From: Promethearchaeota archaeon
Lineage (GTDB): Archaea; Asgardarchaeota; Lokiarchaeia; Sigyniarchaeales; SOKP01
Reading direction: 5' to 3'
DNA: 64,000 bases
Assembly (NCBI GenBank): GCA_030599585.1
Contig: JAUVNS010000002.1
Coordinates: 345,282-409,281, forward strand
A program made the translations under genes and the position numbers. The stretch's first letter is position 1, and each line of letters starts with the position of its first letter. This document shows positions 11,057 through 50,900 of this stretch, piece after piece. The notes beneath the pieces were generated by a model, which saw only the letters and a list, made by a program, of their open reading frames with translations, searched no databases and had not been told where the DNA came from.

Positions 11057-11917
11057 TCATATAATAGTAATAGAATCTTTTATTAAAGCGTCTGGAATTG
11101 ATATTAAAGGGTTTCCTTTTAATTGTAATTGATTTAATAATTTTAACTCGACGATAGAGCTTGGTAATTCTTTTAACTTATTCCCCCCCAATTTCAGAGT
11201 ACCCAACGATTTCATCTTTCCAATTGTGGTGGGTAATTGTTCCAAACAATTATTTGATAAGCAAAAGTAGCTCAAGTTTTTGAGATTTCCAACCGACTCA
11301 GGTATTGATTTCAACCGATTGTTTCTTAGTGTTGTTTCAGTTAAACCCTCGAGCCTGCCGAAACCTTCAGGCAGTTTTTCCAACTTATTGTTCTTCAAGT
11401 AAAAGGTTTTTAGAGATTTTAGTTCCCCTATTGCCTCAGGTAGCGCTTTAAGACGATTACTGGACAAAGCTAAATGGTGAAGATTTATTAAACATCCAAC
11501 TGAACTCGGTATTGAAACGATGTTGTTTTCGGCCAAATTTAGGCTATGCAGTGAGGTGACTTTTGTTAGAGGTTCAGGAAAAACTCTTAACCTGTTACCG
11601 GCTATACTGAGAACTTCTAAGAATTTCAGTTTTTCGATTGCAATGGGGATAATTCCGATTGCATTTCTATCTAAATCTAATTCTCTTAACTTTGAAAACT
11701 TCCAAACAACAAGAGGAATTGAGGATAACCGACATGATACCAAACTAAGCTCCTTGATATTCCCGCCTTCAATCTCGAGGAAGATGCGACTCGAATTACC
11801 GTCTCGCTTTTTTTCGAAATTATTGCTTATCAAATTGTCTAATTCCAAAAGGTCATAGTATTCTTGCGAACTTAACCGCTCTTTACCCTCAAAATCTAAA
11901 TCTCTTATGTTTTTCAT
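11057..11917 (-). CDS. Leucine-rich repeat protein (about 9 23-aa repeats), candidate immunity protein
   Basis: Repeated LxxLxLxxNxLxxLPxxIGx; no signal peptide; starts 78 bp after the giant ORF's stop. Confidence 0.9.
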   Translation of the reverse strand: MKNIRDLDFEGKERLSSQEYYDLLELDNLISNNFEKKRDGNSSRIFLEIEGGNIKELSLVSCRLSSIPLVVWKFSKLRELDLDRNAIGIIPIAIEKLKFLEVLSIAGNRLRVFPEPLTKVTSLHSLNLAENNIVSIPSSVGCLINLHHLALSSNRLKALPEAIGELKSLKTFYLKNNKLEKLPEGFGRLEGLTETTLRNNRLKSIPESVGNLKNLSYFCLSNNCLEQLPTTIGKMKSLGTLKLGGNKLKELPSSIVELKLLNQLQLKGNPLISIPDALIKDSITII

Positions 11918-11995: not shown

Positions 11996-14900
11996 TCACA
12001 TCAAACCTCGACTTTCTAATTTTTGTCTTATGTCTTTTATGATGGAAGTGACCCAGTCTTCTGTAATCCATTTCTTATCGATCATCTGTTGAATAGTGTA
12101 AGTCTCCCCTCCATGGTTCATCTTAAGAAAATCTACCTTTGAAGTATCGACTACCCACTTCCCGTTCTCAAACACATATCTATTAGGGCCTTTATAGGAA
12201 TATGCTATTCTGTCGTTATTTTCCCATTCGTTGACAAATTCTATAAGGCGTTCTATATAGAGATCTTGAGCGGATTGTTCCCAGTACGATGGCGGCCTTG
12301 CAGCTTGGAAATCATTGCGCATCATACGCATTCGAGAATAATAATCTAGATTTTTCCTCGGTTCCAAGCTTGTGAATTTGTAATGCAAATCCCCCATCAT
12401 AATAAGATCCATTACGTCGTTTACCGTTTTATCGAAGTCAATGTGATGTCTAAATTTATTATTTTCGACATCATAGTTTTGGATTCCCTCTCCACGCCGC
12501 CCAGCTGGTAATAAACCTCCTTGATAAAGGAGTAATTCAACCCAATGCTTAGCTATAGTTGCTACTTTATAAAAATCGTCATGATAATCAACTTTTGTAG
12601 AATCAAGCAATTTTGGTTCATATCTAAGGTAAATATCATGAACCCCAGGATAATTTCTTTGATTGTCGGCATAAAAATCTCTAAAAGTTTTTTGCATAAG
12701 TATAGCTTGACCTTTCCTAATAGATTTGCTCAAGTCTGATACGAAATCTTCGAGGTTGTTAACTACACCCATATTATTTATATTCTTAACTTGTCCAGAA
12801 AGATATGAACTAGTTGTAGACGCTACCGTTCCTAATCCAATTCTATTATTGATCTCTGATACATCTAAGTATATCGATCCATGATATATATCAGATAGAT
12901 GCCAACTAGCAAGCAACATTACTTTTTGAAGAGGTTTGACTTCTTCATTAACAAGAAAACTGTTAGAAGCGCAGTATCTATTAATGGCTAATAAGGCTTC
13001 TTGAACTGATCTAGCTACTAACTTAGATTCTATACTATCTGAAATCCTAGATTCGCCCAAATTCTCTAACATAAATTCAGCAGACGATTTCCTGTATAAA
13101 CCGTAAATCATTCTGAGTAAATGTTCGGTTTTGACTACGCGCCCTAGTACTTGGGATCTTGAAAAAAGTCCGAAAAATTCGTTTAACCTGTTAATCGAAG
13201 GCCCGTGACCGTCCCTATTGGCAGGATCATGCTGGATTGCAAGCCTAAGATCCCCTAATAGTTTATCTACGTCAGGATTTTGATTCTGTAAGCCAATTTG
13301 TCTTCTATAATTCATTAATAATTCTTTAAATGCTTTCTTTGTTTCCTCTGTAAATTGTGGATCTTGATCTACACTAAATATCCATTTGTAAAGCTGGTTA
13401 TCAGTCCATAAGATGTTTACTCCGTTCTCTAAAGACAAGCGGGTAGTTCTAAATGCATCTCGACGTTGATTCAATGCTATAGCAAGCGGTCGCTCCTCAG
13501 TAATGCTTAAAATGTTTTTAATATCATTGAGTAAGATGTTCGTAGGATGATCTTCCCAATTTTCGTAACTATGGAAGTAATCAATAGTAACAGCCACTTC
13601 CGCTACGTAAATTTTACTGTCGATGTTATGATGGTTTTCTTCTAGCCAATCTGCAAGATTAGTAACGCGGTCTACAGGAATGGAAATGAGTTGAAAATCA
13701 TCGGAAATTATATACATCTTATAATTGCCGCTCACACCGAAATAAGTCAAAATCTCGTTTAATTTGTCTAAAGTGCTCATATCTGCTCTAAAAGCGTTCT
13801 GAACTAAAGAACGAGAGGCTTGGCTCTTTTTATGAATTAACACAAAATTGGGATCGTAGAATTCTAATCCGAACATATCTAAGAATCGCAAATTTGTAAC
13901 CCCTTCTTTAGCAAGTGCGTCTTTAATGATTTGAATTGTCTCTTTTTCTGCTTTTTGGACTCCAATCTTATTGTAATTTTTCTGGATTTGTCTAAATAGT
14001 TCTTTATATCCTCTAAATCTCTCTTCTTTTAATAGATACTTCTCGATCCATTCGTTAAAATATGGATCAAAGGCAAGTGTGTTAAACTTGTTAGCGAGAT
14101 TTTCTTTTTGAGTTCTACTATCGGGATTAATCTGACGAAGAGCAGTAACCGATGGAATGTTTTCTTTATTGGAGCCTTCTTGCGGTGCCTTAAATAGCTC
14201 GTGAAGGGCTTGAGGATCAACTTCCGAGGGTTGCTTTGTTTCTTGTCCAAAGTTTATGGTGTCAATATCTCCGACAATACTTATTAGGTTCTTTTTTCTT
14301 CTGTTGTGTCGCCACGACTTGAGATTAGCCATGGAAAGAGGCGACGCTTTTATTGAGCTGCCGACCATTTTCTTCAGACCGGAGAGCGCAGCGAAACTGA
14401 AGGTGCCGAAAAAGACGGCTGGAAGCGTCATAAACAACCCTTTAAGGAAGTTGCTTTCTAACAGCTTGCCCAACGAGCCCTTATTTTCTGCTGCTTCTTG
14501 CATTGCTTTCTGTTTTTGTTCGAAATCGGAGTTTATTTGCTGTTGAATCTCTGTCATTGACTGACCCGAAACGAGACCTTGTATAAGAGTAATTACGCTT
14601 TTTGAACTTATTGGAGCGCCTAGAACTAACTGGCCCATGGCTCCTTTTACTTCTCTGGCGGAGGTTGATAACGAAGACAACCAGAATCCTAAGTCGTCAG
14701 AGCCGCCTAATATACTTACGACGTTTTCGATTAGTGCTTCTCTAAATCCGTCTTGAATTATTTCTTCGAATACTTCTTGTATTGCACCTTTAACCGCACC
14801 TGTAAGACCTCCAAGAAGCGATTTTGATTGCTTTGCAATAAGCATCGCAACGCCTTTAGCTCCTGCCTCCGACGCTAATTTGCCTACGGCTGCTTGAGCC

Positions 14901-17900
14901 GCCCAAGAACCAAAATACGCTAAGGGAGCGCTTATTAACGTAGACCAGAACGTTAGAGTCTCCGTATAGGAAATCTCTGAAATCATATTAGCACTAATTT
15001 CTGCGAATGTATACTGACTGAAATAGTCCATAATGGTGTAAGAAGTAGCTTGAGCTAAAGCAAGTCGACTGGTTTCGTCGGTGGTGTCGGGAATAAATCT
15101 TTCGAATTCGATTCGAATTTTGTAGAATATAGTCTCATCGACCAATTTGCTAGCCCACGATTGAGCCAAGAAGTCTTCGAATCCTGAATATTTTTCCGAA
15201 ACGAGCGCTTCTATAGACTTAGTAAAGTATAGATTACCTCCATCGACCGTGTAGTCAGAATCGTTAACTAGTATGTCTTGAGCAAAATAATCGTTTAGGT
15301 GAACTTCTTCTTGAACAACGTCGATAAACACGGACGTAATGTTGTATTCGAAACCGTTATCGTTAAGAGGAACTTTCGCTCCATACAGAGCCGATTCTAC
15401 GTCGTCCATGGCATAAGCGTTAATCCCAGAAGTCTTATCGTAATCCTTACATCGAACGGTCACAGTAAGTTTTCCTAGCGCAGGTTGGATTTGGTCGAAT
15501 CGAGCTTGGCTTAGAACCACGGGTCGATACAAAATCGATAGCGGTAAGATAGTTTCTTGGATGGTGCTATTGATAAATTCGTAGCTCGGTGCTCCGTCTA
15601 TGCAATTAGGCTTTATAGCATCGAACGATCCTCCTGATTTTTCCATGACGATGGTCTCAAGCGCGCCTAAGGTGTTGAACGAGTGTAAGTTGTAATCGTT
15701 AAACAAGAATTCGGTGTTGTGGTAAGTGTAAAATGGTTTGGTGTTGTAATAAGGGAGCTCGCTTGTCATAAGTAAATAATCTAAATTGATGTCATCGTAA
15801 TCGAGGGCGGTGTAAGAATCAGGATTGGAACCTCCCATGTCCCAAATGTTTTCCCATAATAAATCTAAAAATCCTCCAAAAGAGTTCCATATTCGAAGTG
15901 GATTTGGAGGACTTACTAACAACTGCCCGGTATAAGTAGTCCCAGAATCCTTGCCACTCACGGTAGCGTAATATCCTCCTGGATGAGCTAATAGCGCTGC
16001 TGCCATCGTGTCTTGAAGAACTCTATCAAAAAGATTTTTTTCGTTGAGCGAAACCGGTTCTTGTGGTCCGCTTGAACTTGGGTAAAATGTGTCGGCCCGT
16101 TCTATGGATTGTGCCATGTGAAGTTTTCGATCGATGTTAAATTTTGTCATTAAAGTATATATAACAAGGTAAGTTAGCGTTCCCGCAGCTCGACCCGCAG
16201 CCTCTCCCGCTGCAATAGCTGCAAGAGTTCCTACGCCTAATGTCGCCGCTATACCAGCAGCAGTGACCATCGACGCAACTATAGCTGCTACTACCGCGCT
16301 CGCAATAGCCGCAGTTGTTGTCATAAAGACTTGTTCTATAATATCACCTACTAATTGTTCTCTGTAAGTCTCCCACGCTCTTGCGTAAGATTTGTGTCTA
16401 ATTTCGTAAAATAACTCGGTAAATTTAGGGTTTTTTTGGCTCGTTTCAGAAGTTTTGTAAATTTCGAAGATTTGATCTTTTGGTTTGTATTCTTTCCAGA
16501 ATTTATCGTCTTCGTTTAAAATATCGAATAACAAATCGTTATTTTTTAAATTGTCGAAGTTATAAATCCAATCAGAACCAAACATTTCAGTCTTTCTTCC
16601 GAGGTTGCTAAAATCGGTAATTGTGTTTTCTACTTGATCTAACTTTTCGTAGGGAGCAAAATCGTGTATGCCGTCGTAGTTCATTCCTATCGATATTACG
16701 TCGTATTTAGGAATTACTAATCTGCTTACCGTGTATAAGTTGCCAACTATGTACACTGTCTCGTAATAACCGTTAAGATCTGAATCTATGAAAAAGTAGC
16801 TACCTGAAGTTTTAGCAGATCCGTCCAAAAACGCGTCTTTATCAGAAGTGTAATAAACTTGACCGTCTGCCGGAGTGACCATAGCTCCAGTCACCTCAAA
16901 TTCAACCCAACCGTCGTTCTCTACGCTAGATTTAGATATTTTACCGAAATCGTTGTATAACGAATACCTATTTGGGATGCGAAGAATAATAGTCTTTTCG
17001 AAATAATTTGTGGAATAAGAAATTTCTCCATCTTCGTCAAATACTTGAAGAGAGTCGTATTTTATTGGAACGTTGTCTGAACTCCAAGTTGGACCCGTCC
17101 AAGTGATGTTTGCGGGACTCGCGTAAGGAAGTTCAGGATCGAAAATTATTTGTGATTGGGCGTTAGTGTCGATGTTAGTGACCGAGTGTTGATTGGAAAC
17201 ATCTTCAAAGAACCCTTCGACGCTTTCAACTTCGTTGTTTTTAAAGTCGTCCTTGTAAACCCTTTGTTCTTCAACCTCTCCTTCGTTATAATCAATAAAG
17301 GTTAAAGTCGAATATTCAACGGTGTCTACGTACGAAGTAGTGACATTTTCAGTAAATTTTCTATAAGTTGTGCTCAAAGTAGGAGCGTTCATGATGGCCC
17401 CAAGGTTTGCCGTGCTAAAATCGTTAGAATCGAGGTGTTCTTTCGTAAGAAATTCGTTAAATACAAAATCGTCTTTTGATCCAAACAAGGAAGCGGCGCT
17501 TTTCATTATATATTCGCCTAAAAAGATTAATACGTTCTGAAGTTTTGCAGCGAGTATTGTTTCTTTAAATTCCGTTACCTCGTAATATATGCTAACTTCG
17601 GTAGTCTCAAAGTTGGTAGATTCGTCTACCGTTCCGTCTCGGTCTTCGTCTACTTGCACGCTGTAGAAATTACTTTTAACGTGTTCTTCCTTGTTTATTT
17701 GCCTCTGCGTCGATTTCTGAGCCCAATAGTCAACATCTGGAAGCATCATCTTAGAAAGCGTGTAAAGCATTAACGGTATTATCAAGACTGATAATAATAG
17801 TTTGGCCATGTTAGGATCGTAATTGGCGAAAGTTTGATCGTCTACATCGAACCAATCTGTTCTTAGTTTTTCTTCTAAGTTTTTAGAGGCTTTTATCTCT

Positions 17901-20900
17901 CGATTCTCGAAATCTTGAATGACCGTATACCAATAAATCTCGCCTGAACCTTCTGGATCGTCTATACCGTATTTAATTATATCTGGAACGCCATCTCCAT
18001 CAATGTCGATCGTTTGCTTGTAATCGGATTCTCCGTCCATGTCAATGTCTGCTACATATATTATGGAGGTATCGTCGTAATATACTTCGAAATTATCGAA
18101 TTTTTCAGATGTGTAACCAATAAATTGACTTTCAGAACTAATGTCGGGGTTTCGAGAGAAACTAATTGATTCAAAAGAAGTGCTTTCGCTGGTAATAGTA
18201 TCAGATCCTTCAGCAAACAACGGAACGCCCGATTCAGATCTGAAATTGTAATCAATATCTACCGAACTGTAAAAAGTCTCGGTCTGATCTGATAAGTAGG
18301 TTTGGTTAAAATTATCGAGTAAAAATATTTCGGTATAGGTAGAAATTGGGGCGTACGAATAATTTACTATTGCTGTAATTTGATCAAAAACGTCCAGAAG
18401 ACCGTCATCCGAGTTCAGATCAATAATTGTTAAGTTGTTAGTTGTTTCGTCAAAATTTAGGCTAAAATTGACGTTATTTGTCAACATTTCCGTGTCAAAG
18501 GTAGGCGTTAATCCGATCACTTGATACAAACTAAGGTTAACAAAGTCGTTTTCGAAAGTAAGGTTGCCAAGGTCAAAAGTATGGGTGTATTCAGAAATTT
18601 CGGTGTATACTGAAAAAGTCTCGTAATAATATTGGACTACTCGATATTCCGATTCTTCTTTAAAAGAGTAAGCGATATTTTCGTAGGAGTGCGATGTGCT
18701 AAACTCTGAAAGCCAATCGTAATGCTCAGGTTTTAATAAGTAGTTGCAATCGTATACCGCCCTAATCGAGTCGAGATCGATGTTTTGCTCGTCAATTCGA
18801 ATAGATTCGGTCCAAGACGTGTTTGTAGCGTATTCAAAGAATAGGGTTGAATTAGCCTCGATTATTAAAGGTTCTTCAAATTCCATACCAAAATATTCTG
18901 GGTATTGGTTAAACGATGGGTTCCAGGTAAATGTATTGTTTGAAGGTTCAAAGTGTAATTGGTGATCGTTTCCGGTAATTCCTGCCGAATAATAATTGCC
19001 TTCCTTGTCGTATATGGTCAAATAATCTAACCAAGTACTATCAAGGTAAAACATTGGCAATTTATCGAGAACGAGTTGATAGGAATCGTCTTCAGGATCG
19101 GAATCGGATGTAAACATTTCGTGCTCTGAATATTGCCACACCCGACTATCTACGCTACCAAACGCGTCTGATGCCTCGTACGATTGTTCTAAAAGCACAA
19201 TTTCGCTTATAGTCAACTCGTATGTAGGGTTAGGCACAGAAATAACTATATTACTGAAGTCTAACTCGTCAACTCCTTCTGAACTAAATAAGGAAGTTAA
19301 GTTAAGCTCTATCTTAACCGCCTTCACTCTTCCGTTAAATTCGGTATCAAATGGAGTAATTTCTAATGGAACTTGGTAATAATAATCGGCGGTAAATTCG
19401 GAATAAGAACCGGTAGAATTGGCGTTAATTAACAACAGCTCCGCTTTAGGAAGGTCTGGGTGCGAATCGTAGTTATATCCCTTGCTTTCGAAGTAAGCTT
19501 TACCGATACCTACGGCTATTCCTCTCTTTACTGGAGAGCTATATTTTAGGACTATCACTTGATCGTCCTTAAAGCTACCCCTTTCGCTGGTATTGTTGTT
19601 GAAATAAATCGTCGGAACGTGTAAAGTGTAAATATCGTTTTCAAATGTATAAGTTATGTTATTTGAGAAAGAAAGAAGTTCCAACATGTCGTTAAATACG
19701 TAAGCTAGATGAGTCCCGTTAACCATAAGGTCACTTTCTAACGCGATGTGCATGTATTCGATTTCATCTTCCATAAAGGATACGAGTTCGCTATCCCATT
19801 CAACAGTTTGTATTCTGATAATACCTTTAAGGTTGTCTTGAGAGTATTTTTCGTCGCTCCTAAATTCTGGAGTAAATCTTATCGTTTCTAAGGTGTTTGT
19901 GCTAGTAGGCAAATCAACTTTTAGGGTGTAATCTACCATAATTAATTCTTCAGCGGTGATAACTTTTGTTAATTGCGTCATTAAGCCTGAATTATCGAAA
20001 AGTTCGATCGTGACGTATTCTAAACTTTCTATGTTTTTTATATTGGTGTCTAAATACAAAACAAGGTAATCTCCGTTGTGTAGTCCTGTAAGCATATCTT
20101 GATCGTAATTCTGCAATTCTTGAGAAACGTTGAATTCTAATTGATCTCCTTCTTTAAGATAGGCAGCAACTTGAGACGCTTGACAAACTATGTTCTGCAA
20201 GGTAGATTTGTTCTCGTTCATGAAGTATGGAGCGTCTAAGTTAGGTATCACGCTAAAATTTTGTGCGTTTATAATGTTCCAACTTGTTACGTTTAATGTT
20301 GATGTAATTCCTTCCGTGGGATCGTACGAGAATTGGTAACTATTTAGTTCTTTATCGATATTATTTGATATAAACGATACGAAGAATTCTTTGTTCGCCC
20401 GAATTGAAGATACCAAACTGTTTTCATCGTTTTTGATGGTTATTTTTCTAGAGTCAACATCTACTGAATAGTGAATAGAATCTAAGAATATCATCTTGCC
20501 TCTTGCGTTGAAATAAAACACGCTTATCGCCTCCTCTCCTTCAGCTTCGATAATATCGACGTAATTATCTAATTCTGGGCTCATCATATCGTATACATAT
20601 CCTGAAACGGAACTATCAAAAAATTCAGAGCTTATCTCGAATCTCTCTTCGTAGTAATCTCTGCTATTTAGCCGATAACTTAAGTATAAGTTGTATATGT
20701 TGTCGATCGAAAGGCTGTATTCGAAAGGTGTAATTATGGAACCTCCGCTTAATTTTCGGTATTTTTCCCGATAAGTGTTTAACGAGTCTAAAGTCGTCTC
20801 AAATAGGTTTGTCCACGGATAAGTAACCATTATGAAGTGTTTGCGATCGATTAACCCTGGTTGAAGTTTATATTTGTATTTTAACTCAACATTTGTGTTA

Positions 20901-47900: not shown

Positions 47901-50900
47901 CCAAAATAGGTGTTATAATATTCGTAAACCGTATTGTTGTCGATATCGGTCGCTTTACTAATAAAATACCAATTGTCGGAATCTGGGAGGTCTCTCGAAT
48001 CCAATAAATAAGAGTAATAAGACGAATCGTAGCTAAAACTAGCGAGGAAATCCCAATCGATTTCTGATTGAGTTTGGAAGTCGGGAAGCGTTCTCGAGAG
48101 ATAAAATTCCATCGATTCTACTTCGTTACTGGTAGCGTTTACCTCAAAATTGAGGTATCCGTCAATTTTTTCTCCTGCGGAAGTAATTATCGTCCAACCG
48201 CCTTGTCCGTTTTCTTTTGCAACTCCGGGAGAAATCGACACGATGCGCTTCCCCGTGTGAGCTTCGATCTGGGCGTCAGTAAGGCTAGCGTTAAACACCG
48301 ATATCTCGTCGATAATTCCTGTAAAACAAGAATAATTTGCAATTTCGCCTCCAACGGTCAAATTACCTCCGGCTTGTAGGTAACCACCGCCGTTCCACGG
48401 TTCATTAATTCCACCAAGCGCGTCTCTACACCAAGTTTCTCCAATTAACACGTCAATATCGCTCTTATTGTAACGAAGAGCTATGTAAGTCCATTGATTG
48501 AGTGGGATTGCTCCACTAAAACCGTACGTTCCCATCGATTCGAAGTTAGTTGTGTTTAAATAAAGTTGTAAAAAACCACTCTCGTTGACTCCAATTTCTA
48601 TGTTTCCTTCCTTTGCAAAAAATACATTTTTAACTCCGTTATCGCTTAGGTTTGAAGTAAAAACCGTGGGATACAACCAACCCGCAACTACAAAAACATC
48701 GTTAGAATCGCCTAAAGTATTGTCTAGGACGTCACCAAATTGCACATAATCAAAATCTTTATATTCGGGATCTCCAGAACCTTGTTGCGATTCTGGAGTG
48801 GTCGAATTAAATTTAATCTTCATTCCATCTAGATCAGTTTGGTTCAAAGTTAAACTTGACCACGTGTAAGTGTTCCATTCTGGGGTTGAAGCCATACTTA
48901 ATGGTTTTTCTCCTAACCAACCTCCGCAGTAGACATCTACCGTCGAATCTATGGTAGTTTCGTTTCCAAACACCTTTATTGAAATCTCAGTTACGTTTCC
49001 ATTCTGAACGCTAAAAGAACTCATGTTTAACTCGTCAACGATGTAAGGTCCTTGAAACGTGCTAGAGGTAAATATATACCCGCTACTCGTGTCTGGAGGA
49101 GGTACTTCCTCTACTGATTCGTTGAGTAAATTAAAATGATCGTCCGAGGTTGAAGCGTTCCATTGAGCAATAACGTCCTCGTTTGGAAGAACGATACTGT
49201 TGTTTATTATTGTACTCGATCCTGAATATGTGTAATAGACTATCATCTCAATGTGGTCGATATAGGCGCTCCGGGCGGTTGATGTGTCTTTGTTATCGAC
49301 TTGAAATTGAACTCCGAACGTATCACTATTTACAATTGAAGGGGTTAAACTCGCGCTCCAGTCGTCTTCCATGCCACCATAGCCCACATACTGGTCACTT
49401 GTAGGCCAATACGACACCAAATCTGGTTTACCGATCCCTTGTATAACCTCTCCAAGTATTAAATCTACCGTTCTATCCATAATTGTATTCGTTGCTGACG
49501 CGTGTCTATCGATTCTTACGTGAATACCGGCAATATCTGCAGTGGTAGGAATATCGAACCCGAAGTTGGAAACTCGTAATATATCGCTTTTTTTCCGCTT
49601 TGCAATAAGATTAGCGAGTGCATACGCGTCATTCGGCGTCTTTGCGTTATCGGCAGGAATCCAATCGGTACCACCTACTTGCATGTTTGCCGCGGTTCCA
49701 GGGTCATAATACCCTTCAGAACCATCACTACCACCAACACCTTCGTATTCGTAGGACACGTTAGCGAAGGTAGCGTAAATGGTAGAACCAATTGTCTCGA
49801 TTTGTTCGTATTCAAGAGTTCCTACTCCGTCAAATTCTAACCCATATGATTCGCCTTGAGTGCTTGTCCAACTTACATCGCCTTCTAAGGTTCCTTCCAA
49901 GTTATGAATCTCGTCAAATGTGCTTATTCCTAAATTTTCGTTGAACAACGCCCAGAAATCTAAAGAGCCTGGGGGAGTATAACTGCTAGTGTGAAGTTGT
50001 AATAAATCGTATATTGAAAAAGGCCAATCGGGGTATAAATCTTCGTTGTTATCGAGAAAATATCTTCCGTGGCTAGAATCAAATTCGAGTCCTGCGTATT
50101 CTACGTAATCCATCTGATTGTAAAAACCATCGCCTAAATACGATAACTTAACGAGCATATTTTGTTCGATAGAGCCGTATACTTTGTGAGTATAATAGAA
50201 ACTACCGTCAGAACGAGTTTTAACTGTAGTAATTTTTTCAAACCGATCGTTTGATTCGATGAATAACTCTAAATCGTCAACGGGGTAAGGTTCGTGGATA
50301 CTATTAGCAACTTTTCCATCGAATACGATTGTCCACGAGCCATCGTCTGGATGTTCAAAGGTGTATACAGCACCGTAATACTTGGAATCTAATTCTTCTT
50401 CAAAAATTTTGTTTGATATTACCGTCAGATCGTCTTTATTTATCTCAATCTGATACGCTTCAGGAATAGAATTTTTGAACGAAAAACCAGACAAAACCGA
50501 ATAACTCACCTTAGCTTCGTAAGAACCTGGTTGTAAATTTAAATCGTTAAGGTTAATTTCTGCTATCAATTCAGAATCGTCTAAAGGTCCGTTTAGATAA
50601 GGGGACAGAACCGAATACGATTTTTTAGCGTAAAATCCATCAATAGTCGGAACGTCTATGGGTACTAAATCAACTCGAATTCGAGAAGCTTGTCCGAACT
50701 TGGGAGAAATTCTTGTTTTTATCACGAATTTGTCGTTGATTGTAAGTTCGTCTAACGATTCTAAACTTGGATGGTATTCCAAGCTATCAAAATCGATCGA
50801 ACTCGTCGATATTCTCTGTTCTTGAGATACGGACGCAAACTCGTAAAATGGATTGTCCACGGACCACATGGATTGTATTCCGAACGTTATTGGAAAAATG

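Follow-up and report, generated by a model that had tools for sequence, protein, structure and literature searches.

Close to the C-terminus of a giant archaeal protein, far away from its membrane anchor, lies a cluster of hydrophobic segments. Whether these segments are membrane-active, and on which cell they might act, is the question raised by the locus. The stretch analyzed, here called the window, measures 64,000 nucleotides (Promethearchaeota archaeon, assembly GCA_030599585.1, contig JAUVNS010000002.1, positions 345,282 to 409,281). It hosts one open reading frame (ORF) of 13,847 amino acids (aa; 11996-53539, GTG start), which is translated without internal stops. Positions given below are those of the window, unless a contig or locus is named, and all window features described are on the minus strand. 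A sequence-only reading had singled out four segments, here S1 to S4, as a membrane-active region ~11,000 aa from the anchor, resembling a translocation module, and either inserted into a target-cell membrane or re-entering that of the producer. Three of the four, S2 to S4, belong to a conserved, Asgard-specific and previously undescribed module, located at aa ~12,200-13,160, just ahead of a variable tail. S1 does not. There is about an even chance that the module, once exported, inserts the apolar tips of its helical hairpins and S4 into the membrane of a target cell, taking a bare linker and the tail across.

The anchor corresponds to a cluster of transmembrane (TM) segments at aa 657-892 (50864-51571), which follows a basic N-terminus and precedes a long acidic chain enriched in sequons (N-x-S/T). 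All four strings picked out earlier were found in the translation where they had been placed: S1 at aa 11911-11933 (17741-17809), S2 at aa 12407-12464 (16148-16321), S3 at aa 12864-12886 (14882-14950), and S4 at aa 13034-13055 (14375-14440). The distance of ~11,000 aa between S1 and the anchor also holds. S3 is taken here as aa 12858-12886 (14882-14968), wider than the string first noted. Kyte-Doolittle values reach 2.0-2.7 in the TM cluster. Along the rest of the chain, 19-aa windows scoring at least 1.6 were found only in S1, S2 (two overlapping windows) and S4, all inside aa 11914-13052; S3 is weakly hydrophobic, and stays below this value in this giant (0.95-1.3). Charge-free runs single out the same region. 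The longest of the giant is S2 (43 aa), S3 ranks fourth (26 aa), and S4 is among the top ten (22 aa). The longest charge-free run of the 10,900-aa ectodomain measures 32 aa, and is polar in character. The hydrophobic segments S1 to S4 are real, and more than a product of chance.

A profile of the module (aa 12798-13072) matched 221 clusters (50% identity) among 1.84 billion representatives at E<=1e-3, 184 of which at E<=1e-10. Named relatives are all from Promethearchaeota/Lokiarchaeota, other Asgard metagenome-assembled genomes or marine-sediment metagenomes. Among 301 sampled genomes of the phylum, 31 carry matches, mostly within the family of the window (27 of 68 genomes). In this sample the module is often present in multiple copies per genome, and the open frames hosting it measure up to 20,619 aa. 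The module is found also in an 11.5 kb contig binned as Candidatus Anoxychlamydiales (L024, JAAKFN010000045.1), which encodes the C-terminal 3,082 codons of a Loki-type giant (40% identity); most likely the contig was misbinned, and the homologue is not bacterial.

Several residues of the module are invariant in 25-27 sequences (E12855, Y12858, T12859, T12863, S12866, E12922, E12926, D12930, E12934, S12955, R12962, E12963), and remain at least 90% conserved across 70 sequences. Four of them, with i+4 spacing, form an acidic stripe after S3 (E-x3-E-x3-D-x3-E, 14738-14776), on one helix face. The conserved S12955 ... R12962-E12963 motif follows (14651-14677). Within the region, sequence conservation is highest in S3 (consensus YTETLTFWSTLISAPL.YFGSWA). 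The last element that every family member shares is S4, a Gly/Ser/Phe-rich apolar helix (consensus GLFMV.PS.FFGSFSF..L.GL). S2 is mostly an apolar stretch of ~45 aa in homologues, and features a Glu residue in its first half, in mid-helix, in 19 of ~27 sequences. As a family mean, its hydrophobicity is 0.45-0.63, its moment <0.3, with about no charged residues over ~57 aa. The Ala/Gly stretch of ~55 aa noted by the sequence-only reading is present, as 58 residues, but this length is a lineage-specific expansion.

S1, which is hydrophobic and contains proline, has conserved flanks, and is itself replaced by charged sequence in the homologues P0024 and P0027. Sequons are enriched upstream and conserved downstream of it. 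S1 was discarded both as a TM helix and as part of the module, as it is not conserved as apolar, and both its sides look extracellular from the sequons. The earlier grouping of four segments thus holds for the cluster S2-S4 next to the variable tail, not for S1. Dense acidic loops of the D-x-D-x-D-G type, kept in homologues, lie just upstream of S1 (17930-18045, aa ~11832-11870). The run has no Pfam match, and is a candidate Ca2+-binding cluster.

Are S2 to S4 hydrophobic enough to act as membrane anchors? Insertion energies were computed from a biological hydrophobicity scale, summed over 19 residues without position weights. The N-terminal TM segments measure -1.9 to +1.7 kcal/mol; elsewhere in the giant only S2 falls below 2 (0.3). 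Across homologues, values range from +2 to +4.5 for S2, +2 to +6.6 for S3, and +0.2 to +6.3 kcal/mol for S4, most copies being at +2 to +6. In the family-averaged profile the three stretches are charge-free, have low moments (<0.3) and a mean hydrophobicity of 0.45-0.7, and are flanked by amphipathic arms (moment 0.3-0.47). S2 to S4 are accordingly marginally hydrophobic, and would belong to the class expected to traverse the translocon instead of halting there.

These figures bear on a quite improbable explanation, according to which S1 to S4 are stop-transfer or re-entrant segments forming a second anchor in the membrane of the producer, and the tail, bound by the product of the gene downstream, resides in the cytoplasm of the producer as part of a giant receptor or as a stored toxin. 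S2 of this giant is as hydrophobic as a real TM segment, and basic residues are found after both S2 and S4. However, a stop-transfer anchor should be conserved, hydrophobic enough for autonomous insertion, and have its flanks on opposite sides of the membrane. None of the four segments combines hydrophobicity and conservation, and only the expanded S2 of this giant reaches the energy of an anchor. In most of the family, S2-S4 have energies of +2 to +6 kcal/mol, and S1 is not conserved as apolar. As to the flanks, conserved sequons border S1 and S2 on either side, and sequon avoidance, hence exposure to the transferase, borders S4 likewise; this is indirect evidence against flanks on opposite sides.

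The module lies where the giants exchange their C-termini. The source genome (4.85 Mb, 52 contigs) carries three such giants, of 13,858-14,552 codons. BLAST comparisons to all ORFs of the genome revealed that the giant of contig C23 shares aa 11702-13108 with the one described here, the giant of contig C47 aa 11706-12542 and 12804-13088, and an ORF of 1,364 aa aa 12804-13058; beyond these stretches the sequences are unrelated. Similarity among 36 database homologues stops at aa ~13050-13090, at ~13140-13177 (after a conserved NPNPK...LANKF sequence) or at ~13305-13330; the tails beyond, of 600-1,700 aa, are unrelated. In paralogues and database homologues alike, the C-terminal domain has been varied by recombination at recurring breakpoints, and the rest retained. 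The main breakpoints fall in a basic linker (aa 13056-13160, 14060-14374; net charge +4.8 per 100 aa), marked by NP(N/D)P.. and LANKF motifs. In this giant the linker is followed by a variable tail of cytoplasm-type composition (aa 13161-13847, 11999-14059), in which no sequons were found versus 5 expected. Net charge per 100 aa changes from -10 in the ectodomain to about -1 in the tail (-1.2), and K+R content from 5% to 12.7%. The switch from ectodomain-type to cytoplasm-type composition occurs at the module.

Alternative tails include matches to LAGLIDADG_3 (PF14528) in P0002, and to a ThiS-like beta-grasp (PF02597) in P0012 and P0022, according to precomputed Pfam assignments, and exemplify the unrelated families to which tails belong. 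A conserved Asn-Pro motif (NPNPK consensus) lies at the second breakpoint (14117-14128, aa 13138-13141). The Pro following each conserved Asn blocks a sequon. The motif could be a processing site.

Nine loci (L009, L010, L015, L018, L019, L021, L023, L030, L033) host the module in 5'-truncated ORFs of 1,000-3,000 aa (e.g., L018:4429-9177, L030:4917-7955). Their homology to the giant starts abruptly, between aa ~11035 and ~12849, and the first Met corresponds to an internal residue of the parent. All keep S3-S4 and have no leader of their own; unrelated genes are found upstream, and a partner gene downstream, of the leucine-rich repeat (LRR) type in five. These stand-alone units with alternative tails look like orphan cassettes for tail exchange. 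One of them (L018) carries the same tail type as the window (55% identity), along with a 66%-identical LRR partner. The 1,364-aa ORF mentioned above is likewise orphan-like (G000:C23:57899-61990, minus strand, L008), and resides on the strand opposite to the C23 giant, ~7 kb past the 3' end of the latter. The copy of the module it carries is far closer to that of the C47 giant than to that of the neighboring C23 giant, and the ORF has 0 sequons versus 8.3 expected. A short remnant of the module (giant aa ~12801-12858), broken by an in-frame TAG, was found at G000:C8:148621-148797 (minus strand, L004), and is probably a decayed cassette. In the window, the LRR partner gene (11057-11917; Pfam LRR_8, 1.6e-31) lies 78 nt downstream of the giant. 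Its product has a hydrophilic N-terminus, no signal peptide and a normal sequon count, and LRR genes follow the tail in 5 other loci. By position, it is a putative immunity partner.

The location of the module at recombination breakpoints, and its retention in orphan cassettes, fit a different and somewhat unlikely explanation, in which the module is a soluble pre-toxin or junction domain. The apolar helices would be its buried core, and it would serve to hold the tail, to provide a processing site, and to supply homology for swapping; the tail would enter cells otherwise (e.g., by way of a membrane protein of the target, as CdiA-CT does), or work extracellularly. The marginal hydrophobicity of the segments, and the mid-helix Glu present in most S2 copies, are in keeping with it. 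Against it, the charge-free runs at S2, S3 and S4 are extremes of a 13,847-aa chain, and no peptidase-like set of conserved residues was found nearby.

Information on topology was sought in the distribution of sequons. The genome encodes an STT3/AglB-type oligosaccharyltransferase domain (PF02516, E 2e-44; G000:C34:33721-34914, plus strand) within a frame of 1,325 codons, and hence has the enzyme which the argument presumes. The argument presupposes that this organism glycosylates at N-x-S/T. A set of 160 family sequences was anchored on the invariant YTE motif, and N-x-S/T sites were counted versus a composition-based expectation. The observed to expected ratio is 1.25 for the ectodomain upstream, 0.50 for each of the S1-S2 and S2-S3 intervals, and only 0.03 from S3 to S4 (4 vs 147). 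It is 0 for the linker (0 vs 113), and 0.01 for the tails. In 117 tails (89,704 aa), 6 sequons were found versus 625 expected, and no N-x-T versus 255. Control motifs are close to expectation in the same tails (S/T-x-N 0.85, Q-x-S/T 0.98, D-x-S/T 0.89, N-x-A/G 0.75). As baselines, ORFs of the genome lacking a hydrophobic window, of cytoplasmic type, score 0.94, and those with one 1.19. LRR partners feature 15 sequons versus 16.2 expected (0.93), and the cytoplasmic N-termini of the giants 10 versus 19.

In bins of 50 aa, sequons are enriched up to aa ~11800 (1.2-2.8), and nearly absent at aa ~12208-12600, a second desert of ~400 aa around S2. They are back at aa ~12608-12807 (0.5-1.3); then, beginning with the first residue of S3, they are missing all the way to the C-terminus in >100 sequences. 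Conserved sequon columns are N12065 (61% of homologues) and N12144 (78%), located between S1 and S2 (17102-17347), N12657 (41%) and N12759 (63%). Conserved Asn residues beyond S3 are never within a sequon. Since conserved sequons flank S1 as well as S2 on either side, the surroundings of both segments are read as extracellular; therefore S1 is no TM helix, nor does S2 cross the producer membrane an odd number of times. A variant in which the S2 hairpin dips into the membrane of the producer, with both ends outside, is possible. The region from S3 to the C-terminus is read as exposed to the transferase, because otherwise nothing selects against sequons, as the cytoplasmic baselines indicate. 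From S3 onward, unrelated tails thus appear to be under strong, generic selection to stay glycan-free. The simplest generic reason would be that they must unfold, cross a membrane, and then work in a cytoplasm.

The same pattern bears on the possibility of a second anchor. The cytoplasm-type composition of the tail and the cytoplasmic-type partner agree with a tail kept inside the producer, and the C-terminal half of CdiA is reportedly held inside the producer cell until contact. Yet near-total, motif-specific avoidance of sequons in the S3-S4 loop, the linker and the tails would have no selective cause in the cytoplasm, where baseline ORFs, N-termini of the giants and LRR partners all retain sequons; the sequons conserved on the flanks of S1 and S2 also speak against it. 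The pattern thus favors a region from S3 to the C-terminus that is exported and kept glycan-free, as a delivered cargo, over a tail in the cytoplasm of the producer. Of the two options held out by the sequence-only reading, insertion in a target membrane and re-entry with a cytoplasmic nuclease output, the former is favored on these grounds, though insertion itself is inferred. Absence of sequons would suit any need to stay bare, and is compatible also with a soluble junction domain, which leaves the second desert around S2 unexplained.

The module was modeled by AlphaFold2 over aa 12395-13170 (model 1, 27 sequences; mean predicted local distance difference test score, pLDDT, 64.6) and over aa 12798-13170 (model 2, 70 sequences; mean pLDDT 66.6). 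In model 1 a helical hairpin (A) is predicted at aa 12396-12432 / 12438-12483 (16091-16354; pLDDT 56-71), S2 forming its apolar tip, or distal half. An alpha/beta domain follows (aa 12495-12820, 15080-16057; pLDDT 80-93), which includes the conserved sequons N12657 and N12759, and has no fold match. In model 2 a second hairpin (B) is predicted at aa 12821-12889 / 12895-12943 (14711-15079), in which a 69-residue helix with S3 at its end is joined through a turn to a 49-residue helix bearing the acidic stripe (pLDDT of the second arm 76-92). S2 and S3 are thus predicted, at moderate confidence, to sit at the tips of very long helical hairpins. From the antiparallel register alone, the polar residues that are invariant where S3 begins (Y12858, T12859, T12863, S12866) would face the acidic stripe. 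S4 is modeled at low pLDDT (50-60).

These features can be read in favor of a junction domain, since packing of helices on each other is suggested by the amphipathic nature of the partner arm and by the invariant cluster of polar and acidic residues. However, the helices are predicted as hairpins with arms of 37-69 residues, and not as a compact bundle. The alpha/beta domain was considered as a His/Cys releasing peptidase, and discarded: only 14 of 23 sequences have the Cys, and conservation falls mostly on Gly, Pro and Tyr. Burial of the segments in a soluble fold, earlier held to speak decisively against membrane activity, is too strict a refutation, because in colicin pore domains and in the diphtheria toxin T domain the hydrophobic hairpin is buried in a soluble fold before insertion.

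Similarity to colicin, RTX or Tc pore domains, which the sequence-only reading had suggested checking, found no support. The Pfam scan of the whole giant yielded nothing except one sub-threshold Big_3_2 match far upstream, and no family is assigned along its full length; the NCBIfam scan of the last 2,348 aa yielded no family. No match was obtained with the profile of the colicin pore-forming domain (PF01024), nor with those of the diphtheria toxin T domain, the TcdA-TcdB pore-forming region, RTX and Tc toxins, in the C-terminal 2,348 aa of the giant and in 27 homologues; indeed, no Pfam family matched the former at E<=0.1, and the latter gave none at E<=0.01, two coiled-coil matches in the homologues being judged chance. 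The best hit of a PDB sequence search with the junction profile (E 0.28) is noise. Foldseek searches of PDB with both models gave no match with E<=0.001. VIA-align, run wide on both models with a second look at model 1, returned only generic helical hairpins at Z 5-9 (cytochrome oxidase subunit, RIFIN, ESCRT-III, Esx, G protein-coupled receptor helices, Wzc, AcrA/MexA), within the noise range stated for the tool for helical folds. No colicin, RTX, Tc, diphtheria or large-clostridial-toxin domain was among the Foldseek and VIA matches of these moderate-confidence models. ESM Atlas scores (0.81-0.85, low recognition) are uninformative.

Among membrane-remodeling and fusion proteins, the long helical hairpin with an apolar tip is a general design, and ESCRT-III/Vipp1-type proteins are among the generic hairpin matches (Z 6-7). 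The module might therefore be an adhesion or fusion-type element, the apolar tips of which enter the membrane of a partner cell to tether or merge the two in a syntrophic contact, the tail not being transported, and having an extracellular or regulatory role. This is very improbable: the matches fall inside the noise range of the tool, and swapping of tails with partner genes, their cytoplasm-type composition and their lack of sequons are left unexplained.

Insertion of the module into the membrane of a target cell would account for these features as follows. The layout comprises two long helical hairpins with charge-free, marginally hydrophobic tips (S2, and S3 with its amphipathic partner arm), which are parted by the glycosylated alpha/beta domain and followed by the acidic stripe, a coiled segment, the last apolar helix S4 and the basic linker. 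The entire chain past the N-terminal anchor would be exported. Too weakly hydrophobic for stop-transfer, the apolar segments would end outside, packed on each other. On contact, the hairpin tips and S4 would enter the membrane of the other cell, and the unglycosylated region from S3 to the C-terminus, linker and swappable tail, would be carried or conducted across. The tail would then act in the target, unless neutralized by the LRR partner. The acidic stripe is a candidate, speculative, ion or pH latch. Escape from stop-transfer, insertion, translocation and triggering are all inferred steps.

A number of points weigh against this proposal. Pfam, NCBIfam, PDB sequence, Foldseek and VIA searches detected no homologue known to be membrane-active. 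Both hydrophobicity scales were summed unweighted by position, and the insertion energies are crude. Both models are of moderate confidence (mean pLDDT 65-67, predicted template modeling score 0.36-0.54), S4 is poorly modeled, and in hairpin B the partner arm, which bears Lys, is amphipathic rather than apolar. Avoidance of sequons denotes exposure to the transferase and selection to stay bare, and is no evidence of membrane crossing. Within this genome, a sequon-free window of 600 aa is not significant after multiple testing. Only three other ORFs feature one (G000:C22:200115-202259, G000:C11:123401-126778 and G000:C11:147583-152064; L034-L036), and encode ordinary cytoplasmic helical proteins, namely two SMC/Rad50-like ATPases and a HEAT-repeat protein. 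Taken by itself, the absence of sequons from the tail of one giant was therefore not accepted as significant, and only the family-level figure is used.

The module, the boundaries of which are given to the residue, would be the conserved element most likely responsible, should a surface-tethered toxin reach the cytoplasm of another cell. The sequon desert starting at S3 provides a family-wide, quantitative signature, which separates proteins exported and kept bare from cytoplasmic ones on sequence alone. If membrane-active, the module would be a new design for protein translocation, and would offer a way to study how cells interact in the archaeal group nearest to eukaryotes. A stronger version of the proposal, put forward tentatively and less likely than not, is that the module is a self-contained archaeal protein-translocation device without relatives among known toxins, by which a surface-tethered giant pushes a bare, unfolded payload of ~800 aa into a neighbor with no secretion machine. 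If so, no contact-dependent mechanism of protein delivery would have been described in Archaea before this one, which would belong to the lineage closest to eukaryotes. The residues that cross, from S3 to the C-terminus, would be marked exactly by the sequon desert, and this signature could be used genome-wide to look for delivered proteins in glycosylating prokaryotes.

The proposed action resembles, by analogy, that of the translocation hairpins of colicins and diphtheria toxin, or of the TM helices of prePAAR effectors of type VI secretion systems. As in the colicin pore-forming and diphtheria T domains, in which acidic residues act as the insertion trigger, a hydrophobic helical hairpin and conserved acidic residues lie beside the domain to be delivered; a similar role of the E-E-D-E stripe would be purely conjectural. 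Unlike in those domains, the helices are 2-3 times longer, two hairpins are parted by a domain of 330 aa, and Pfam and fold matches are missing. In prePAAR effectors such as Tse6, Gly/Ala-rich helices reportedly enter the inner membrane of the target and pass the toxin domain across. The parallel would lie in marginally hydrophobic helices, rich in small residues, linked to a cytoplasm-acting toxin domain that crosses a single target membrane unaided. The prePAAR helices, however, are said to be N-terminal, solubilized by Eag chaperones, and delivered by the type VI secretion needle; those described here are C-proximal in a Sec-type surface protein, have no known chaperone, and share no detected homology with them. 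ClyA-family alpha pore-forming toxins also feature very long antiparallel helices with apolar distal ends, the architecture predicted here from secondary structure. The resemblance is one of design only, and no ClyA-family member was found among the fold matches.

Asgard archaea carry many unrelated giant genes without assigned function (Wu et al. 2022, PMC8813620, Extended Data Fig. 7). Those giants, including the aloposon giants Otus and Ephialtes, are from the same kind of organism and belong to the same gene size class as the one described here; the module, the swapping of tails and the sequon pattern are not described in that study (PMC8813620). The closest parallel in organization is provided by bacterial polymorphic toxin systems (CdiA PT-VENN, Rhs core, MafB), which include orphan cassettes with alternative tails (Zhang et al. 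2012, PMC3482391), and which in their classical form have been reported as rare in archaea (PMC3482391). Unlike pre-toxin domains, the module has no similarity to the Pfam pre-toxin families, features long helices with apolar tips, and has no recognized releasing peptidase. As in polymorphic toxin systems, an N-terminal anchor, a long presenting stalk, a tail and a small downstream partner gene occur in order. As with pre-toxin domains, the conserved element lies just N-terminal to an end-piece that is replaced via stand-alone cassettes. By its position and its genetics, the module behaves as a pre-toxin domain does in polymorphic toxin systems.

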